Shown: piece by piece, positions 1,321-11,135 of the stretch
How the letters are laid out: each line of letters starts with the position of its first letter
Numbering within the stretch: the first letter of the stretch is position 1
Notes under the pieces: generated by a model
Seen by the model: the letters and a program-made list of their open reading frames with translations, nothing else
Told to the model about the DNA's origin: nothing
Databases searched by the model: none
Made by a program: the position numbers and the translations under genes
IMG/VR virus record: IMGVR_UViG_2675903606_000019
Span: 1-11,135 of that record
Source of the DNA: a virus
Taxonomy: Duplodnaviria; Heunggongvirae; Uroviricota; Caudoviricetes
Length of the DNA: 11,135 nucleotides
Strand: one strand, 5' to 3'

Positions 1321-1404
1321 AGTGTACGGATTTATAAGTGGCTGATTTTTAATGTGTTACTGGTTTTTTATACACTAGCGAATCACTCTTTAAATAGCGA
1401 GAAA

Positions 1405-3183: not shown

Positions 3184-3483
3184 ATGAGAACATATTTATC
3201 TGGCTTGACTGCCAGCGGTTATGCACACCCAAAAATTATCCCCGGCGCTATTTATCTGGATAAGAACGGTAACAGAGTAACGGTAAAAGAACTGATGTTT
3301 GACCGTGTTTATTTTATCCGTGATGGATATTCATTTCTTAGTTCGCTGAACGTGGAGATCTTTATTTGCAGATTCCGGCGGGAAATCCCGACTTCCAGAA
3401 ATAACCATGTGTCACGTGTGGATGTGGATAAAAAACTACAGGAACTGAAAAACATGATTGCCGCGTGGAGAGAGCAGAAATGA
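3184..3483 (+). CDS. Hypothetical protein (99 aa), AT-rich cargo-like gene
   Basis: Track ORF MRTYLSGLTASGYAHPKIIPGAIYLDKNGNRVTVKELMFDRVYFIRDGYSF... RBS GGGGA upstream. Its stop TGA (3481-3483) overlaps the ATG (3480-3482) of the primase gene (ATGA coupling). Confidence 0.65.
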   Translation: MRTYLSGLTASGYAHPKIIPGAIYLDKNGNRVTVKELMFDRVYFIRDGYSFLSSLNVEIFICRFRREIPTSRNNHVSRVDVDKKLQELKNMIAAWREQK

Positions 3484-5603
3484 AAAAAGCGCCAAATTTA
3501 AAACACCAGCCGCGTGACAAAATGACGGAAGTCATCATTTTTGCGGGTAGTGATGCGTGGGCACATGCGAAGCAGTGGCAGGAACAGGACGGGCGACTGG
3601 CTGGCGACAGCGTGCCTCCTGTCTGGCTTGGAGAGCAACAACTTGCCGAACTGGATAAGCTGCAAATTGTGCCGGAAGGCCGAAAATCAGTACGCATATT
3701 CAGGGCCGGACATCTTGAGCCAGTAATGATCAAGGCGATTGGTCAGAAGCTGGCGGCGGCAGGCGTACAGGATGCAAATTTTTACCCTGATGGAATGCAC
3801 GGTCAGGAGGTGGAGAACTGGCGCGAATATCTAGCCCGTGAGCGGCAGAATCTTTCTGATGGTCTGGTTATTGAGTTTCCGGTAAAGAAAAAAGATACCG
3901 GAAGCCATAGCGATGACGAATTAAAGCCACGCGTTGAAAGTCGCGCCGATGGTGTTTTCTGGGTAACGCCCAAAGTGGATAAGCAGTCAGGCGAAATTAT
4001 CCGGCCTGAGACGTGGTTATGTTCTCCGCTTGAACTACTGGGAACGGGGACGATCGGTAAAGAGCATTACCGCGTGATGCGCTGGAAAAAAACCGCAAAC
4101 CATGAAGTCATCACAATGGCGATCCCGTGTGGTGGTATCGGCGACCGTGACGGCTGGCGGTTACTTAAAGATCACGGGCTGAACGTGACAACCAACGGCA
4201 AATACAGGGCAATCCTGGCGGACTGGATGCAGTTAAGCGGAAGCCATGAGGAATGGCAGTTAAGCACAACAACGGGCTGGCATTTTGGCGCGTACATCAT
4301 GCCGGACGGTTCGATCATTGGTGAATCTGAAAAACCGATCCTGTTTACCGGAAAAAGCGCCGCGATTAACGGTTATTCCGTGGCGGGCACGGCGGATGGC
4401 TGGCGCGACAGCGTGGCGCGGCTGGCTGGCGGTAATGCCTCAATGATGCTGGGTGTGGCAACGTCACTGGCAGCGCCTTTAATTGGCCTTGTGGGTGCTG
4501 ACGGCTTCGGGGTGCATCTTTTCGAACAGTCATCGGCAGGTAAGACCACCACGCAGAACATCGCATCAAGTTTATGGGGAGAGCCGGACGCGCAGCGGCT
4601 GACCTGGTACGGCACGGCGTTAGGTATTGCCAATGAGGCCGAGGCCCATAATGACGGGCTTTTACCACTGGATGAGATAGGCCAGGCCGGAAATGCGCGG
4701 GAAGTGTCAACGTCTGCTTATACGCTGTTTAACGGTTCAGGGAAATTGCAGGGGGCGAAGGATGGCGGCAACAGGGAGATCAAACACTGGCGAACGGTGG
4801 CAATCAGCACCGGAGAAATGGACGTTGAGACATTCCTCAAAAGTGAGGGGATAAAAGTTAAGGCGGGGCAGCTTGTCCGACTGCTTAACGTTCCGATGGA
4901 AAAAGCCACGAAATTTCACGAATACAGCAACGGTAAGGAACATGCTGACGCGTTAAAGGATGCCTGGACAGCAAATCACGGGGCGGCGGGTCGTGAGTGG
5001 GTTAAATGGCTGGCAGGCCACCAGCAGGAGGCAAAGGATACGGTAAGGGAATGCCGCGAACGGTGGCGCAACCTGATACCGGAGAGCTACGGCGAGCAGG
5101 TCCACCGCGTGGGTGAACGTTTCGCCATACTGGAGGCCGCGCTTGTGCTTTCCGGTCATGTAACTGGCTGGGTCGTGCAGGAATGCCGCGACGCGATACA
5201 GCATAACTTTAATGCCTGGGTGAAGGAGTTCGGCACGGGTAACAGGGAATTTAAACAGATGGTTGAACAGGCTGAGGCGTTTTTGTCGTCGTTTGGGTTT
5301 AGCCGCTACCTTCCGTACCCCAATACAGATGAGCGTGATTTACCGATTAAAGAGCTTGCCGGATACAGAAAAGGGAGCATTCGCAACGAAGATGACGAGA
5401 TGCGCTATTACACGTTCCCGCACGTGTTTGAGAGTGAGATAGCGAAGGGATTTAATCCGGCGCATTTTGCGCGTGCCCTGGATGCTGCCGGAATGCTGGA
5501 GAAGGGAAGCGATCGCCGATACAAAAAAAAGGCGCTGGGCAAGATTGGGGGTAAGCAGCATGTTTTTTACGTGCTGATGTTCCAGCCTGATGATGAAGAT
5601 TAA
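3480..5603 (+). CDS. Replication primase/helicase-type protein (P4 alpha / PICI Pri-Rep-like; NTPase with Walker A motif)
   Basis: About 707 aa (track ORF 3465..5603; the ATG at 3480 with ATGA overlap is preferred, ATG at 3465 or 3522 possible). Contains Walker A-like SSAGKTTT and is followed directly by an iteron array. Size and position match the satellite/prophage primase-helicase class. The exact domain family needs a profile search. Confidence 0.8.
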   Translation: MKKAPNLKHQPRDKMTEVIIFAGSDAWAHAKQWQEQDGRLAGDSVPPVWLGEQQLAELDKLQIVPEGRKSVRIFRAGHLEPVMIKAIGQKLAAAGVQDANFYPDGMHGQEVENWREYLARERQNLSDGLVIEFPVKKKDTGSHSDDELKPRVESRADGVFWVTPKVDKQSGEIIRPETWLCSPLELLGTGTIGKEHYRVMRWKKTANHEVITMAIPCGGIGDRDGWRLLKDHGLNVTTNGKYRAILADWMQLSGSHEEWQLSTTTGWHFGAYIMPDGSIIGESEKPILFTGKSAAINGYSVAGTADGWRDSVARLAGGNASMMLGVATSLAAPLIGLVGADGFGVHLFEQSSAGKTTTQNIASSLWGEPDAQRLTWYGTALGIANEAEAHNDGLLPLDEIGQAGNAREVSTSAYTLFNGSGKLQGAKDGGNREIKHWRTVAISTGEMDVETFLKSEGIKVKAGQLVRLLNVPMEKATKFHEYSNGKEHADALKDAWTANHGAAGREWVKWLAGHQQEAKDTVRECRERWRNLIPESYGEQVHRVGERFAILEAALVLSGHVTGWVVQECRDAIQHNFNAWVKEFGTGNREFKQMVEQAEAFLSSFGFSRYLPYPNTDERDLPIKELAGYRKGSIRNEDDEMRYYTFPHVFESEIAKGFNPAHFARALDAAGMLEKGSDRRYKKKALGKIGGKQHVFYVLMFQPDDED

Positions 5604-5625
5604 TCCCCTGTGTGAGGAAAAAAAT

Positions 5626-5941
5626 TGCGGGTTATGCGGGTTATCCTGTGTATAAGTGTATTAAGTGCATGAATATAAAGGAAACCAATAACCCGCACGT
5701 AACCCGCAAAAGGGCATTTATAACCCGCAAAAGCACGATTATAACCCGCAGGCGAATAACTGAAGTAACACCGGACAGTCATGCGTAACCCGCAGAAAAA
5801 ACCCAGTTTGCGGGTTATTTTGAGCGTTTTGCGGGTTACGTGGTGAGCAAATAATAAACAGGGTGTTTTGCAAAATACTGATATAAAAGGATAAAAAATG
5901 GTTAGCACGCTAAGATAACCCAATAACCCGCATAACCCGCA
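5626..5941. repeat. Iteron array: about 11-12 copies of TAACCCGCA in both orientations (probable replication origin)
   Basis: Reverse copies (TGCGGGTTA) at 5626-5634, 5635-5643, 5809-5817, 5830-5838. Forward copies at 5689-5697, 5700-5708, 5721-5729, 5742-5750, 5786-5794, 5924-5932, 5933-5941, plus a degenerate copy near 5914-5922. AT-rich stretches at 5855-5960. Lies immediately downstream of the primase/helicase gene. Confidence 0.75.
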
Positions 5942-5973
5942 CATGTTTCTATATATATAAATTGAGGTGGCAA

Positions 5974-6915: not shown

Positions 6916-6921
6916 TCAACA

Positions 6922-6943
6922 GCCGGAGTAATCCGGCTTTTTT
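6922..6943 (+). terminator. Rho-independent terminator after the replication module
   Basis: Stem GCCGGA/TCCGGC with GTAA loop followed by TTTTTT (6938-6943). Confidence 0.7.
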
Positions 6944-7155: not shown

Positions 7156-7362
7156 ATGGCTGAAGAGAAAAAAGGCGGTGTTTCGGTGTACATAAGCCCC
7201 GACATCGTGAAGGCGCTCAAGGAACGCCACCAGCAGAACGTAAAAGCAGGCATTGCGGCAGGACTTGATCCGCTGGCGATGGTTGAGCCGTCAACAGGCT
7301 GGCAGGTACGCGCCTATTTACGCGCGGCGCTGGGTATGAATCAGGTTCACGGGGGTGAATAA
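7156..7362 (+). CDS. Hypothetical protein (68 aa), first gene of the capsid operon
   Basis: RBS GAGGA 10 nt upstream. Its stop TAA overlaps the major capsid gene start (TAATG at 7360-7364). No family recognised. Confidence 0.6.
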   Translation: MAEEKKGGVSVYISPDIVKALKERHQQNVKAGIAAGLDPLAMVEPSTGWQVRAYLRAALGMNQVHGGE

Positions 7363-8417
7363 TGACAGTAAAAGCAATAGCACTTAACACTAACCAGCTT
7401 TTTGTGTACCTGAATCGCGAGGATATTGCGGAATTTAAATTCAGTCCGCTGTTTACCGCGCTGTTTTTCCCGAACGTGGCGACATTCAACACACAGGACA
7501 TCATGTTAGATAACCTGGATATTGAAGAAGTCACTATGTCGGCGTTTTGTTCGCCTATGGTGGGTAGCCAGGTTCAGCGCGATAAAGGGTACGAAACAAG
7601 CATTATTCGCCCTGGCTACATGAAGCCAAAACACGAAATCGATCCATTAAAAACAATAATGCGCATGGCTGGAGAAGATCCAGCACAGCTTAACGACCCT
7701 ACCTACCGCCGTATGCGCCTGATTACTGGCAACATGCGCCGCCAGATAAACGCCATTAAAGCGCGCGTGGAATGGCTGGCGGTAAATGCGGTAACGACCG
7801 GAAAAAACATCATTGAGGGCGAAGGCATAGAGCGCTATGAAATCGACTGGAAGATACCGGAAAAAAACATCATAGAGCAGGCCGACGGTAAAAAATGGTC
7901 AGAGCAGGACAAAGACATACACGACCCAATCTATGACATTGAGCTATACGCAGATCAGGCAGGTTGCCCCGCCAACGTCATGATTATGGGCGTTGATGTA
8001 TGGCGCATGTTACGCAGCTTTAAAAAATTCCGTGAACTGTACGATCTCTCCCGTGGTTCAGAATCCGCCGCAGAGCTGGCATGTAAAAACCTGGGCGAAG
8101 TGGTGAGCTTTAAAGGCTATCTTGGTGATCTGGCCCTTATCGTCTATTCCGGCAAATACACTGACAGCGACGGCACAGAAAAATATTTCCTTGAGCCTGA
8201 TTTGCTGGTCCTGGGCAACACCAACAATAAAGGGCTGGTGGCCTATGGTGCGATTATGGAACAGGAAGCGGTAAGAACGGGCGCAACGCAAAACATGTTT
8301 TACCCGAAAAACTGGATTGAAGACGGCGATCCGGCGATTGAGTACGTGCAGACACACAGCGCACCGCAGCCTGTTCCGGCAGATATTCGCAAATTTGTTA
8401 CCGTCAAAATTGGTTAA
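7362..8417 (+). CDS. Major capsid protein, lambda gpE family
   Basis: 351 aa. Multiple blocks match phage lambda gpE as recalled: FKFSPLFTALFF (lambda FKFDPLFLRLFF), PGYMKPKHEIDP (PGYVKPKHEVNP), EDPAQLNDPTYRRMRLITGNMRRQ (EDPQNLADPAYRRRRIIMQNMRDE), YPKNWIEDGDPAIEYVQTHSAP (YPKNWVTTGDPAREFTMIQSAP). Confidence 0.9.
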   Translation: MTVKAIALNTNQLFVYLNREDIAEFKFSPLFTALFFPNVATFNTQDIMLDNLDIEEVTMSAFCSPMVGSQVQRDKGYETSIIRPGYMKPKHEIDPLKTIMRMAGEDPAQLNDPTYRRMRLITGNMRRQINAIKARVEWLAVNAVTTGKNIIEGEGIERYEIDWKIPEKNIIEQADGKKWSEQDKDIHDPIYDIELYADQAGCPANVMIMGVDVWRMLRSFKKFRELYDLSRGSESAAELACKNLGEVVSFKGYLGDLALIVYSGKYTDSDGTEKYFLEPDLLVLGNTNNKGLVAYGAIMEQEAVRTGATQNMFYPKNWIEDGDPAIEYVQTHSAPQPVPADIRKFVTVKIG

Positions 8418-8428
8418 CGGTGGATTCT

Positions 8429-8764
8429 ATGAACACTCCATACATTGAGTTATTTGCAGGCAGTCAGCAGGTATCAACGACGCTGGTACATTTTGCCGCT
8501 GATGCTGGCGTTATTCAGGAATTTACCCCGCTGATGCTGGCGGACAATGGCGAGTTTAAGCCGTGGGATGGTCAGGAATCTGGCAAGGCTGTTTATCTGA
8601 CCTCGTACCCCGTTGACACGTCGACGCAGAAATCAGCACAGTGCTATAAGACGGGGATATTCAATATCGCCGCCGTTAACTGGCCTGAGAGCGTCGACAC
8701 CGATGCGAAAAAATGCGCCGCCTTTGCGGGTTCTGGCGTATCCGTTCAGCCGCTGGCCCGATAA
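8429..8764 (+). CDS. Head decoration protein, lambda gpD family
   Basis: 111 aa from ATG 8429 (the track starts at GTG 8420); RBS GGTGGA 5 nt upstream. Matches lambda gpD blocks: TPLMLADNGEFKPWDG (lambda TPLMLDTSSRKLVAWDG), YKTGIFNIAAVNWPESVDTDAKKCAAFAGSGVSV ([35 protein letters not shown]). Confidence 0.85.
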   Translation: MNTPYIELFAGSQQVSTTLVHFAADAGVIQEFTPLMLADNGEFKPWDGQESGKAVYLTSYPVDTSTQKSAQCYKTGIFNIAAVNWPESVDTDAKKCAAFAGSGVSVQPLAR

Positions 8765-8776
8765 GCAGGGGGAACG

Positions 8777-9190
8777 ATGGCAACGAATGAAAGCATCATG
8801 GCGCTACCGCTGGCGAGTAAATTTAAAGCCGAAGCGCGGGCAATGGCTGACAGAGGGTTATCAACCTACGAGGCCGTATATCAACTCAACAAACTGGAAG
8901 AACAGGACAAGCCGCGCGCTGATGCGATTATGGCGCTTCATGAACATAACGACTATCAGCCGCTGTTACGTGCAATGGCAAACGTGCCATGTATTAGCGT
9001 CGATAATGCTCGTGAAATCCTGAACATGACCATAGAGCAGGAGCGCCCAAAGGTTGCACCAGAGCTTACCGCAGCCTTTGAAAACTTTATGGACATGCAC
9101 AGCCCGCAAGCCGTATCAGCTGGCATGGCATACGATGGCAGAAACCAGGGCGATGACGGCGACATCGATCACATACTGAAAACCATCTGA
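8777..9190 (+). CDS. Hypothetical protein (137 aa), last gene of the capsid operon
   Basis: RBS AGGGGGA 4 nt upstream of the ATG. Acidic C-terminus. No resemblance noted to lambda FI/FII/W as I recall them. Followed by a strong terminator. Confidence 0.65.
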   Translation: MATNESIMALPLASKFKAEARAMADRGLSTYEAVYQLNKLEEQDKPRADAIMALHEHNDYQPLLRAMANVPCISVDNAREILNMTIEQERPKVAPELTAAFENFMDMHSPQAVSAGMAYDGRNQGDDGDIDHILKTI

Positions 9191-9196
9191 GACAAG

Positions 9197-9220
9197 GCCG
9201 GAGAAATCCGGCTTTTTTTT
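9197..9220 (+). terminator. Strong rho-independent terminator (GNRA tetraloop hairpin plus T8)
   Basis: Stem GCCGGA/TCCGGC with GAAA loop and 8 T (9213-9220). The stem is identical to that of the terminator at 6922-6943. Confidence 0.8.
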
Positions 9221-9298
9221 ACGGGTCCTTTCCGGCATATGGACCCGTTACGGGGCGGCGACCTCGCGGTTTTTCGCTATTTATGAGCCTTTTCAGGG
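9221..9298. other. Lambda-type cos site (cosQ-like, cosN 12-nt cohesive end GGGCGGCGACCT at 9253-9264, start of cosB)
   Basis: ACGGGTCCTTTCCGG...GTTACG-GGGCGGCGACCT-CGCGGTTTTTCGCTATTTATGA closely matches the right and left termini of phage lambda as I recall them (right end ...ACGGGTCCTTTCCGGTGATCCGACAGGTTACG, left end GGGCGGCGACCTCGCGGGTTTTCGCTATTTATGA...). Sequence diverges from lambda after about 9298. Confidence 0.8.
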
Positions 9299-9358
9299 GG
9301 GTGGTGGTGGTTTTGTTGTTTGCTCTATCTTTATGAATGAAAAGGGAAAGATGCAAAC

Positions 9359-9396
9359 AATACACCAACCTGAAGCAGTAATTAAGTTGGTGTATT
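9359..9396. repeat. Perfect 11-bp inverted repeat AATACACCAAC-N16-GTTGGTGTATT abutting the terS start codon
   Basis: Read directly from the sequence. The right arm ends 2 nt before ATG 9398. Candidate cosB-type binding site or a translational-control hairpin. Confidence 0.5.
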
Positions 9397-9397
9397 A

Positions 9398-9940
9398 ATG
9401 AAATCGCACCTGATGAACAAAAAAAACATGGCGAAAAGCTGCCGTGTAAGTGCGACAGCGTTCGACAAGTGGGGAGTGACTCCCGTTGAACGTAAAGGCC
9501 GTGAGGCGTTTTACGATGTTGCCAGCGTGATAGACAATAGGGTTAACAATGCAATTAGCCAGCTTACAAACGACAAAGGCGATATTGATGATGATGAACT
9601 CTTACGAGTCAGGATCAGATTACTGACAGCACAGGCGGAGGCGCAGGAACTTAAAAACGAGCGCGATCGCGGTGACGTGATCGATACTGAGTTTTGCCTG
9701 TACGCGCTTTCAAAGCTGGCGAGTCAGATTTCATCAATCATGGACAGCCTCCCGCTTACTATGCAAAGGAGCTTCCCACAGATTACCCCCGCCATGCTGG
9801 ATAGGCTTAAAAGGGAAGTGGTTAAAGCCTGTAATGCCAGTGCCAGAGTTGCCGACAACCTCCCACAGATACTGGCTGATTACTTGAAAGAAACAACCGG
9901 AAACGTACCGGAAAAGTTGCAGCCGAATAAAGATAAGTAA
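9398..9940 (+). CDS. Terminase small subunit, lambda Nu1 family
   Basis: 180 aa. C-terminal two thirds align with lambda Nu1 as recalled: RLLTAQAEAQELKNERDRGDVIDTEFCLYALSKLASQISSIMDSLPLTMQRSFPQ (lambda RLTRAQADAQELKNARDSAEVVETAFCTFVLSRIAGEIASILDGLPLSVQRRFPE). N-terminal region is more divergent but still shows NKK...W...G.PV.R.G....YD.A.VI. Confidence 0.85.
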   Translation: MKSHLMNKKNMAKSCRVSATAFDKWGVTPVERKGREAFYDVASVIDNRVNNAISQLTNDKGDIDDDELLRVRIRLLTAQAEAQELKNERDRGDVIDTEFCLYALSKLASQISSIMDSLPLTMQRSFPQITPAMLDRLKREVVKACNASARVADNLPQILADYLKETTGNVPEKLQPNKDK

Positions 9941-9951
9941 CGTAGTACGCT

Positions 9952-10233
9952 ATGACTGAATCCGAAATACTGCGATTAATCCGCCGCGTCTCTGGAATCA
10001 GCCAGCAGGCTGACGAACAGACCACGCAGCCGGACAGCGTGACAGCCGAAAACTATGCGCGTGTTGTTGCTGAGGTGATGCGCCGTGATGGTATAGAACT
10101 TAATGGCGTGGATATGCGCAACATACGAACCAGAGTTCTTGAGTTGCTGGCCTACCGTCGCCGCGTGGAGATGTATCGGGAGAAGGAGAAAATAACGTAC
10201 CACTGGAAGAAGCCGGAGCGGTTGCGGCGGTAA
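9952..10233 (+). CDS. Hypothetical protein (93 aa) downstream of terS
   Basis: Track ORF MTESEILRLIRRVSGISQQADEQ... It occupies the position where lambda has the large terminase gene A, but is far too small to be a terminase. No family recognised. Confidence 0.55.
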   Translation: MTESEILRLIRRVSGISQQADEQTTQPDSVTAENYARVVAEVMRRDGIELNGVDMRNIRTRVLELLAYRRRVEMYREKEKITYHWKKPERLRR

Positions 10234-10526
10234 CTGGTTGATATTCCCGACGGACCAAAAATGGGTGGCTACATCCCTCGCTTCTGAGGACTGTTAACAA
10301 GCTGCCTGAAAGACAGTCACAAACTACGAAATTTTCGCAGTTTAATTAATGATCAGCTTAATCGCTAACCCGCTGATATTTTCGGAAACCTCAATTTGAG
10401 GAAGTCGGCGCGGTAACTCGCTGAACTTTAAGCAAAGCGCAAAATTGCGCTTGCTGAATAATCATTATGATTACGCAGATGATTAAGGAATGACCGAAGG
10501 CGGAAATTCGCCTGTGGTTAATGGGG

Positions 10527-10546
10527 GAGTTGCAGATCTGCAACTC
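10527..10546. repeat. Perfect 20-bp palindrome GAGTTGCAGATCTGCAACTC
   Basis: Read directly from the sequence. A perfect 20-bp palindrome is very unlikely by chance in 11 kb. Confidence 0.7.
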
Positions 10547-10552
10547 GACCAT

Positions 10553-10639
10553 GAAACTACGGAAACTACCCGTAGTTTGGGTAGTAAGAGTAACACCCAG
10601 ATTTTGGGTCTTACTCGTGATACCCAAATTTGGGGTATC
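10553..10639. repeat. Half-site array (AAACTAC x2, then GTAGTTT and a partial GGGTAGT) followed by two adjacent stable hairpins / palindromic sites
   Basis: AAACTAC at 10554-10560 and 10563-10569, GTAGTTT at 10572-10578, partial copy at 10579-10585. Hairpin GAGTAA-c-ACCCA-gattt-TGGGT-c-TTACTC (10588-10616). Hairpin GATACCC-aaatttg-GGGTATC (10619-10639). The two ACCCA...GGGT units are direct repeats of a palindromic site about 27 bp apart. Confidence 0.55.
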
Positions 10640-10902
10640 AGTGGCAACCATAACGACTTTCGTTACGGTTGATGCTTTTACCCCATTGGGGGAAAGGTAT
10701 TACGATAATCATAACACCTACCGAACAGGTAAAGCCCACCAGCCTGATTAACGTTTAACCGGAAAAAAATTCCGGTAGGTGGGGATCCCCATATCGACAT
10801 TAACGCCCCTCATGAATTGGTGCGCTTCCCCCTGGAAAGATGATCCGCCTGTATATTTCTTGTGTCTATTTGTTCCACGTTGTTTCATACAGTGCACCGA
10901 AC

Positions 10903-10924
10903 GGTGTAGTCACTGGTGTAGTCA
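10903..10924. repeat. Tandem direct repeat GGTGTAGTCA x2 (12-bp period) near the right junction; candidate integrase arm-type sites
   Basis: GGTGTAGTCA at 10903-10912 and 10915-10924, followed by TTTTGCG repeats at about 10924-10950. About 75 bp inside the proposed junction. Confidence 0.4.
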
Positions 10925-10976
10925 TTTTGCGATTTTTGGCACTTTTTGCGGTGAAAATTATTTAATTAAATCAACG

Positions 10977-11135
10977 TGTTATGTGAAATAAGTTATATAT
11001 AACAGCAATAAATAATGCGAGAATAAACGGCACGATGATCTCGGTGGCAAAACGGATACCGCAGAGAATAATGACCAGCATTCCCAACATAATGACGATT
11101 TTTAGGCCATTGAGCGTGATGATCGGCTTTGCCAT
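10977..11135 (-). pseudogene. tqsA: Truncated 5' fragment of a tqsA-like (AI-2 exporter family) membrane protein gene; likely chromosomal flank interrupted by the element
   Basis: Minus-strand ORF of 52 codons, [52 protein letters not shown], then TAA. The first 46 or so residues match the N-terminus of E. coli TqsA/YdgG as I recall it; the reading frame then diverges and stops, where the native protein continues for about 300 more residues. Confidence 0.55.

Follow-up and report, generated by a model that had tools for sequence, protein, structure and literature searches.

A candidate modular, structured 3′ tail behind the packaging operon of an Escherichia coli phage satellite

The DNA described here is a dyad-rich, non-coding region within positions 10234–10902 of an 11,135-nucleotide stretch (IMG/VR virus record IMGVR_UViG_2675903606_000019; the whole stretch is called the window below). 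The window is an Escherichia coli satellite of the phage-inducible chromosomal island (PICI) type inserted in tqsA, and the region lies directly behind ORF93 (a 93-amino-acid [aa] open reading frame [ORF] of unknown function, phrog_1561; 9952–10233, +), the last gene of the packaging operon: a non-coding mosaic starts at the ORF93 stop codon and ends before the attR (P′) arm. We tentatively favor the reading that this mosaic is a modular, structured 3′ untranslated tail of the PICI packaging operon, carried on the + strand and built of modules that can be reshuffled. What is established is its genomic setting, its modular and conserved make-up, the covariation and strand bias of its hairpins, and the absence of a coding signal. 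The satellite context, the modular repeats, and a Chi site go beyond what a preliminary description of the stretch, centered on the dyads between 10300 and 10800, had picked up.

All of the dyads listed in that description are present, within 1–2 bases of where they had been placed. CGAAATTTTCG (10327–10337, +) lies inside a longer dyad, AAACTACGAAATTTTCGCAGTTT (10321–10343, +), which carries AAACTAC/GTAGTTT half-sites like those of the core element discussed below and, in relatives such as locus L165, forms a perfect palindrome of 23 nt. CCTCA-ATT-TGAGG (10389–10401) forms part of a larger, class I hairpin. The palindrome AATCATTATGATT (10460–10472, +) is accompanied by a second copy of its 3′ arm (ATGATT, 10479–10484) and followed by the hairpin AGGCGGAAATTCGCCT (10498–10513, +); in relatives, this module reads GGTCATAATGACC ... 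GACCAT, and the three arms, as read by eye, change together. The perfect 20-bp palindrome GAGTTGCAGATCTGCAACTC spans 10527–10546, the two ACCCA...GGGT palindromic units are ACCCAGATTTTGGGT (10595–10609) and ACCCAAATTTGGGGT (10622–10636), and the inverted repeat CAACCATAACGA/TCGTTACGGTTG (10645–10671) corresponds to hairpin H5 below. Of the four half-sites proposed at 9-bp spacing, AAACTAC at 10554 and 10563 and GTAGTTT at 10572 are exact and so spaced, and the fourth (10581) is imperfect (GTAGTAA). A repeat finder reported 23 inverted repeats in 10200–10900, and the density of dyads is as unusual as had been supposed: 10500–10800 folds with a z score of −6.7 (+ strand) or −8.6 (− strand), and 0/100 dinucleotide shuffles are as good. 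When the whole 11 kb was scanned in 150-nt segments on both strands, 10401–10750 (three segments) was the only contiguous run below z = −4, and the lowest + strand z of the window, −7.6, falls within it.

When 40 different versions of the DNA from ORF93 to the core were compared, it proved to consist of tandem units, 1 to 5 or more per island, the number varying among islands with the same integrase. Each unit opens with a copy of the ORF93 stop context (..GCGG followed by TAACnnGnTGATATT, i.e., ..GCGG-TAAC..) and continues into a hairpin. The window has three such units, starting at 10231, 10366, and 10414. In unit 1 (10231–10269, +), the linker TAACTGGTTGATATT overlaps the ORF93 stop codon, matches the integration host factor (IHF) consensus YAAnnnnYTGATW perfectly, and is followed by a decayed A-loop hairpin, GGACCAAAAATGGGTGG, that is intact in relatives (GGCCCAAAAATGGGTT). 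Unit 2 (10366–10409, +) joins the linker TAACCCGCTGATATT, also an IHF-consensus match, to the two-tier class I hairpin TTCGG-AAA-CCTCA-ATT-TGAGG-AAG-TCGG (10381–10409), and unit 3 (10414–10455, +) joins a degenerate linker, TAACTCGCTGAACTT, to AGCAAAGCGCA-AAAT-TGCGCTTGCT (10431–10455), a class II hairpin, that is, one with a 6–7 bp stem and an AAAA or AAAT loop. Both hairpin classes covary strongly, with 94.2% of cells paired and 28 double-change cells against 8.8 in shuffles for class I (alignment A4) and 91.3% paired and 21 double-change cells against 6.8 for class II (alignment A5), 0/500 shuffles being as high in either case; kinship among the sequences inflates shuffle-based statistics of this kind.

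The linker fits the IHF consensus (WATCARnnnnTTR on the opposite strand) in such a way that its variable positions are exactly the N positions of the consensus; being a match to a consensus only, it marks a putative binding site. In the regions after ORF93, matches occur in one orientation at 2.8 per kb, versus 0.02–0.09 per kb in the upstream genes. The window as a whole has 6 matches, including those at the origin and att, against 0.81 expected (0/200 shuffles reach 6). Outside the linkers, exact matches are found at 5871–5883 (+) in the AT-rich center of the replication origin, at 10969–10981 (−) by the att core, and at 1335–1347 (+) just downstream of int. These are positions at which IHF sites are expected in phage-like elements.

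The tail behaves as a module of its own. Matches to some part of its 737 bp occur in 1326/5426 complete E. coli genomes, almost always in unannotated DNA, and the full 737 bp is 100% identical in many enterohemorrhagic E. coli genomes. In O26:H11 strain 11368, an identical tail follows a capsid-forming PICI (cf-PICI) with different packaging genes and unrelated CTGTTCACC origin iterons, which shows that the tail is independent of the packaging and replication types. Module order and unit copy number vary widely among islands, and the dyads are conserved in these related elements, which is the reverse of the lack of conservation that the preliminary description had named as grounds for refutation. 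The relatives found are all from E. coli or Shigella, with at least 69% aa identity among their ORF93 proteins. A genome scan for distant homologues gave one locus, the 80 loci kept from a metagenome scan are all at least 77% identical to the query, and a protein search returned, among the matches listed, only close E. coli relatives.

The tail contains a 123-nt core (10522–10644, +) made of four consecutive hairpins: P1 (10524–10550), which holds the 20-bp palindrome; hairpin 2 (10565–10585), formed by AAACTAC/GTAGTTT; and hairpins 3 (10588–10616) and 4 (10618–10640), formed by the ACCCA..GGGT units. BLAST matches stop sharply at its edges, 10522 and 10644 (query 289–411). The core is found in 664/5426 complete E. 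coli genomes (∼12%) at 754 places, with 1–6 places per genome, as well as in many IMG/VR viral contigs and metagenome contigs, and it is unannotated in nearly all of the genomes sampled. Every context examined is a PICI island, located at tqsA, at a tRNA-Ile gene, or elsewhere and carrying different integrases. In 53 of the first 54 loci examined, the core follows ORF93, 45–523 nt after the stop codon. It is more conserved than this neighboring gene in 59 of 62 loci; across 39 diverged loci, mean identity to the window is 93.2% for the core versus 83.5% for ORF93.

The fold z score of the core is −6.4, and the four-hairpin model has 97.2% of cells paired, with 5 double-change cells versus 1.7 in shuffles (5/500 as high), which is modest support; the base pair of hairpin 4 (pair 97–119) occurs as C-G, U-A, and U.G. 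The loops are conserved as well as the stems. A single long hairpin, although it is the minimum-energy RNA fold of the core, was rejected: it is unsupported by covariation, and 16/25 sequences break one of its pairs. A search with a covariance model of the core retrieved as extra copies only partial ones, consisting of P1 alone. In a separate observation, the same palindrome, as a 20–21-nt version GAGTTGCAGAT(T/C)TGCAACTCG, lies within genes for KilA-N domain proteins on prophage-like contigs, there coding for “SELQICNSV”; it is present at 89 places in IMG/VR viral contigs (L007, L008, and L011 among them), and the similarity does not extend beyond the palindrome.

Two further hairpins follow the core, namely H5 (CAACC-A-TAACGA CTT TCGTTA-C-GGTTG, followed by AUGCUUUU; 10645–10671, +) and H6 (CTTTTACCCC ATT GGGGGAAAGG; 10675–10697, +). 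The H6 stem is CCCC/GGGG, CACC/GGTG, or CGCC/GGTG in relatives, with pairing kept, and in some islands the whole of H6 is swapped for an unrelated hairpin, TCGTCCG-GCAT-TCGGACGA. Because the stems of class I, class II, and the core covary and H6 is replaced by unrelated hairpins, it appears to be structure that has been selected. The strand on which this structure would operate is indicated by wobble pairs: the outer pair of class I is U.G in 18/23 sequences when read on the + strand, the core has an invariant G.U at pair 51–57 and nine G.U at 67–95, and A-to-G and C-to-T changes in H5, like variants of H6, give G.U pairs on the + strand. On the − strand, the same positions would be A.C mismatches, which argues for the + strand, the sense strand of the packaging operon. 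Class II hairpins, with their A-rich loops, are likewise asymmetric in the post-ORF93 regions, with 140 on the + strand versus 7 on the − strand. The suggestion in the preliminary description that the region might be a highly structured non-coding RNA is thus the best supported of those it offered, on account of the covarying stems and the strand; what emerges is a set of independent modules in an operon 3′ tail and not one large folded RNA. In relatives, + strand terminators in the post-ORF93 zone, one a terminator-like hairpin ∼28 nt after the core in L002-type islands and the other in an alternative cassette described below, are consistent with + transcripts reaching the zone there. Rfam release 15 gave no match in 10234–10970 even at E ≤ 1 and none at E ≤ 0.5 in six related loci, so that the comparison with RNA families proposed at the outset identified no known RNA, and neither tRNA nor tmRNA was found in the region.

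Beyond H6 lies a conserved block, GTAAAGCCCACCAGCCTGATTAAC (10730–10753, −), kept in 27/27 aligned variants and containing an exact Chi site (GCTGGTGG; 10736–10743, −); it is followed by the hairpin ACCGGAAAAAAATTCCGGT (10758–10776, +), which precedes the palindrome GGGGATCCCC (10781–10790, +). Matched by sequence, this Chi is the first correctly oriented one for RecBCD entering from the left cos end. The window has 10 exact Chi sites in 11.1 kb versus 0.32 expected, the largest value in shuffles being 2; they lie at 873, 2034, 6251, 6726, and 8234 on the + strand and at 2773, 5018, 6585, 7227, and 10736 on the − strand. In related islands, Chi orientation is polarized around cosN (64 +/34 − on the capsid side and 32 +/72 − on the terminase side), and the median distance to the first correctly oriented Chi is ∼1.0 kb from one cos end and ∼1.5 kb from the other; in the post-ORF93 regions, the density is ∼1 per 675 bp. 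Such a pattern fits protection of cos-cut or rolling-circle DNA from RecBCD.

If the region is indeed a structured 3′ untranslated tail, RNA polymerase leaving ORF93 would meet no canonical terminator in the window and would transcribe the array; the stacked hairpins would then define the mRNA 3′ end and shield it from 3′-to-5′ exonucleases, and they might keep read-through out of attP/int when the island is an excised circle and out of tqsA when it is in the chromosome. The core could persist as a stable product of RNA processing or serve as a platform for binding, and the IHF-like sites (through DNA bending) and Chi (through RecBCD attenuation) would act on the DNA independently of the RNA. 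We consider it very improbable that the core serves as a regulatory RNA of the satellite, freed from the packaging-operon 3′ tail and addressed to the helper phage, whether by pairing with the RNA of the KilA-N (antirepressor-type) palindrome or by sharing a binding protein with it. A related possibility is that the arginine-rich tail of ORF93 binds the A-loop hairpins as a nut-like RNA-protein module.

Several points weigh against a transcribed, structured tail. The window has no canonical terminator after ORF93, and no promoter for a separate RNA was found in it; transcription of the region, the 3′ ends and processing of the RNA, its stabilization, and IHF binding are all things that we infer. 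The sequences in alignments A4 and A5 were hand-chosen from units defined by the linker motif, with some risk of ascertainment. Copies of the core are 95% identical, so covariation within it is thin, as follows from the narrow range of hosts and ORF93 proteins among the relatives. A common variant of the core, AGAGCAAC (10/25 sequences), breaks a pair on the + strand (C.A), and in the most diverged copy, L225, the hairpin 3 tip is missing and P1 contains an A.C mismatch. The core is, moreover, optional, being absent from 42 loci that carry ORF93, and L165 has the arrangement of the window minus the core-bearing segment (∼10409–10642 in BLAST coordinates). Its sharp edges and high identity could reflect recent spread by recombination and not purifying selection, and its conserved loops and AAACTAC half-sites fit recognition of DNA by a protein at least as well as they fit RNA.

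This last point leads to what we regard as a doubtful but serious alternative, in which the region works as a double-stranded DNA array, with IHF on the linkers and a dimeric or tetrameric protein (ORF93 or another protein of the island or the helper phage) on the palindrome and the AAACTAC half-sites; with the same degree of doubt, such an array could be thought to form a bent nucleoprotein complex for packaging, for excision or integration, or for regulation of int in the excised circle. The preliminary description had listed a regulator-binding array among its possibilities, and the idea survives in a different form, namely as the repeated linker that fits the IHF consensus, enriched in one orientation and variable at the N positions, and as AAACTAC/GTAGTTT sites in two separate modules (10321–10343 and 10554–10587). 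Conservation of the core loops along with the stems, the tight linkage of ORF93 and the core, the location of the core in the excised circle (556 bp upstream of int), and the presence of the same palindrome inside phage KilA-N genes all favor it as well. However, the stems of the units change wholly yet stay paired, which a sequence-specific DNA binder would not tolerate, and there is a strand asymmetry in the G.U pairs and A-rich loops. Half-sites spaced 9 bp apart are out of step with the helical repeat (as reasoned from B-DNA geometry), islands that share an integrase differ in their number of units (1 to 5 or more), and a consensus match alone is not proof of IHF binding. Nor does ORF93 have a recognizable DNA-binding fold: its PHROG match (E = 4.7e-56) is accompanied by no Pfam family, and its predicted structure is a low-confidence three-helix model (predicted local distance difference test score [pLDDT] 64) with no fold match better than E = 2.5. 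The structured-RNA, DNA-array, and other readings are not fully mutually exclusive, and IHF and Chi act on DNA whatever the RNA does.

It is unlikely, in our estimation, that the mosaic is for the most part non-functional recombination debris, left at a cargo-swap hotspot where crossovers at the end of ORF93, stimulated by nearby Chi, produced tandem remnants and where the core is a recent passenger. The copy of the ORF93 stop context at the start of every unit, the highly variable copy number and module order, the presence or absence of the core as a discrete indel (L165 versus the window), the two cores that flank half an origin in some islands, and the frequency of Chi in these regions all speak for such a history; in addition, the zones on either side of the packaging operon are, according to the cf-PICI preprint, variable and “expected to encode immune systems.” Pairing kept through compensatory changes is not expected of debris, however, and the core is better conserved than the adjacent gene, belongs to the most structured block of the island, and, read by eye, has no terminal inverted repeats or target duplications. 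We consider it improbable that the hairpins are single-stranded DNA signals, exposed in the displaced strand during sigma-mode (rolling-circle) replication for ssi-type priming or protein loading. The four hairpins are the minimum-energy fold with DNA parameters too (z = −6.6), the strand asymmetry would be compatible with one functional DNA strand, and the core flanks the right half of the origin in L124 and L017; yet the identical region is found in islands with unrelated origin iterons and primases, blastn against a phage collection gave no DNA similarity to the region, the core is optional, and the frequent G.T pairs would be weak in DNA. That the region encodes one or more small proteins, for example from ORFs of 60 aa (10490–10672, +), 76 aa (10521–10751, +), or 86 aa (10391–10651, −), is scarcely credible. 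ORFs of 54–86 aa do exist, RefSeq (PGAP) places a 52-aa protein, WP_001364204.1, across the core in strain EH53 (L227 1493–1651), and a comparison of L225 with the window looked, by eye, rich in synonymous changes in one frame. A formal count of 51 distinct substitutions, by contrast, gave synonymous fractions of 0.32, 0.39, and 0.36 in the three best frames versus 0.23–0.25 possible, which is no clear excess; common variants have stops in every frame (TGA just upstream of the core and TAA/TAG inside it), no start codon is consistently present, a variant with a 1-nt deletion occurs, and no homologues were found in Pfam, PHROG, or by phage tblastn. The initial judgment that the region holds no convincing ORF is thus borne out, and, given the lack of coding signal, WP_001364204.1 is probably an over-call.

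Several more specific identities were considered and rejected. As a cos site the region does not qualify, since the only exact cosN is at 9253–9264 and the best match inside the dyad region has 3 mismatches, at chance level. A replication origin, or a second site like crr of P4, does not fit either: the iterons are at 5625–5945, the dyad region has one iteron-like 8-mer, and the identical tail occurs with unrelated iterons. The proposal that 10300–10800 is a recombination arm had to be abandoned, since the true attR arm, with its arm repeats and core, is at ∼10860–11009 and the 123-nt element, shared by islands with differing integrases and insertion sites, is not tied to one integrase. Integron attC, Xer/dif, retron, and type III toxin-antitoxin identities were dropped by eye, the defining motifs or partner genes being absent.

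The rest of the window has the layout of a satellite. A tyrosine integrase gene (1–1218) is followed by genes for a DUF4222 protein and a DUF927 primase (3465–5603), and next to the primase gene is the replication origin (5625–5945), in which TAACCCGCA iterons flank an AT-rich stretch; SSB and PerC genes are also present. A strong intrinsic terminator, AGCCGGAGTAATCCGGCT followed by TTTTTG (6921–6938), directly after the PerC gene splits the island into an early unit and a packaging unit. The packaging unit encodes a lambda E-like capsid protein (7362–8417), then a D-like decoration protein and a scaffold-like protein; upstream of the gene for a Nu1-like small terminase (9398–9940) is a lambda-type cos site (9210–9330, +) with an exact lambda cosN, GGGCGGCGACCT (9253–9264). 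Capsid, decoration, and scaffold genes, cosN, and the small terminase gene are thus present (7362–9940) and portal and large terminase are absent, a gene content that places the satellite between classical Rpp-type PICIs and cf-PICIs. The attR (P′) arm (10860–11009, strand unassigned) has two arm-type repeats GGTGTAGTCA (10905–10926) and the att core ATAACAGCA (∼10998–11009) inside tqsA, and both repeats and core recur at attL, upstream of int, in O26:H11 strain 11368.

Two other structured spots deserve mention. The segment 9301–9450, upstream of and into the small terminase gene on the presumed cosB side, ranks second in the window for + strand structure (z = −6.7). On the − strand, the most structured spot outside the dyad region (z = −6.3) is 2588–2660, antisense within a 341-aa ORF (1839–2864), with a weak SymR-antitoxin-like Rfam match (33 bits versus a gathering score of 61; E = 0.0034).

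Among the related islands, locus L226 (NZ_CP148328.1), a 10,790-bp “plasmid” of the PLSDB database, is an excised circular PICI with integrase, AlpA, primase, capsid-protease fusion, DUF1441, ORF93, and core; its attP junction is visible, and it is in this circle that the distance from the core to int given above was read. Some capsid-forming islands (L124 2051–2173 and 9710–9860; L017 4680–4830; L065; L132) have a split origin, with the left iteron block beside the primase gene and the right block, together with the AT-rich stretch, ∼7.5 kb away between two copies of the core, an arrangement that recalls the separated ori and crr of P4 or may be a recombination product. Islands that lack the core often have an alternative cassette of ∼180 nt instead (L004 ∼4500–4680; the post-ORF93 regions of L145, L161, L189, and L154), which contains four GTGAC repeats along with a canonical + strand terminator, GACGTGGCCAACGTCATTTTTT; Rfam gave no match to it, and it may represent a gene for a small RNA.

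PICI satellites play a major part in gene transfer and phage interference among enterobacteria, and the zone behind their packaging genes, mapped so far as merely variable, turns out to have a grammar: oriented units of an IHF-like site and a hairpin, a 123-nt element, and polarized Chi. A non-coding tail after the packaging operon is nowhere mentioned in the PICI literature that we searched, and the palindrome and core sequences were found in no paper searched. Should the tail control how stable the packaging mRNA is, how much transcription runs into int once the island has excised, or whether cos-cut DNA survives RecBCD, it would represent a new cis-regulatory layer of satellites and a handle for engineering PICI-based delivery vectors. 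Even if it were only debris of cargo exchange, it would still mark the recombination joints at which accessory or defense genes are swapped.

Parts of the tail resemble several known systems. Chi reportedly acts as a RecBCD attenuator on linear or rolling-circle DNA and is said to occur in phages lacking RecBCD inhibitors; the exact site, its orientation relative to the left cos end, and the enrichment and polarity around cos are in line with such a role, which would nevertheless account for one 8-bp block only and not for the dyads. The lambda nut site comprises boxA and boxB and works with the arginine-rich protein N. The units similarly combine a conserved single-stranded motif, a 7–9 nt spacer, and a 15–16 nt A-rich-loop hairpin with a covarying stem (e.g., GCCCA-AAAA-UGGGU), and the arginine-rich C terminus of ORF93, RRRSQQRRESAKNTYQWKK, loosely recalls RRRERRAEKQAQWK of lambda N, by eye only. 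However, the linker TAACnnGnTGATATT is not boxA (CGCUCUUA), the AAAA/AAAT loops are closed by A-U and lack the G needed for a GNRA-like boxB (GAAAA-type pentaloop), and the tail is at the end of an operon, whereas nut is at the start, downstream of an early promoter. With 3′ untranslated region-derived small RNAs and the stabilizing 3′ hairpins of phages (lambda sib/tI, T7 RNase III sites), the tail shares structure downstream of the last gene of a phage-type operon and, in L002-type islands, a core just upstream of a terminator-like hairpin, which is missing behind the core of the window; lambda sib is downstream of int, whereas the tail element is upstream of int in the excised circle.

The nearest analogy is with IHF-binding repetitive extragenic palindromes and bacterial interspersed mosaic elements (REP/BIME) at operon 3′ ends, a class (RIP/RIB, BIME-1) that has reportedly been described in E. 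coli. Transcription of the operon upstream runs into REP/BIME elements, which probably shield the 3′ ends of the mRNA. Like them, the tail is an extragenic mosaic of short imperfect palindromes and IHF-consensus sites that closes a transcription unit and varies in number and arrangement. Membership in the class fails on sequence and copy number, and the architecture differs: a REP consensus is absent, and the units TTCGGAAACCTCAATTTGAGGAAGTCGG and GCGCAAAATTGCGC share at most GCCTGAT with that consensus (by eye); the tail element is found at 1–6 places per genome, in a PICI island in every context examined, against hundreds of dispersed copies for REP/BIME; and there is one hairpin per IHF-like site, in one orientation, where RIP has two convergent palindromes around its IHF site. 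The units, moreover, begin with the stop region of the upstream gene, and the 123-nt sequence-conserved core has no counterpart in BIMEs. What is familiar, then, is the kind of structure, a hairpin mosaic at the 3′ end of an operon, and what is new here is the grammar of its units and the conserved core.

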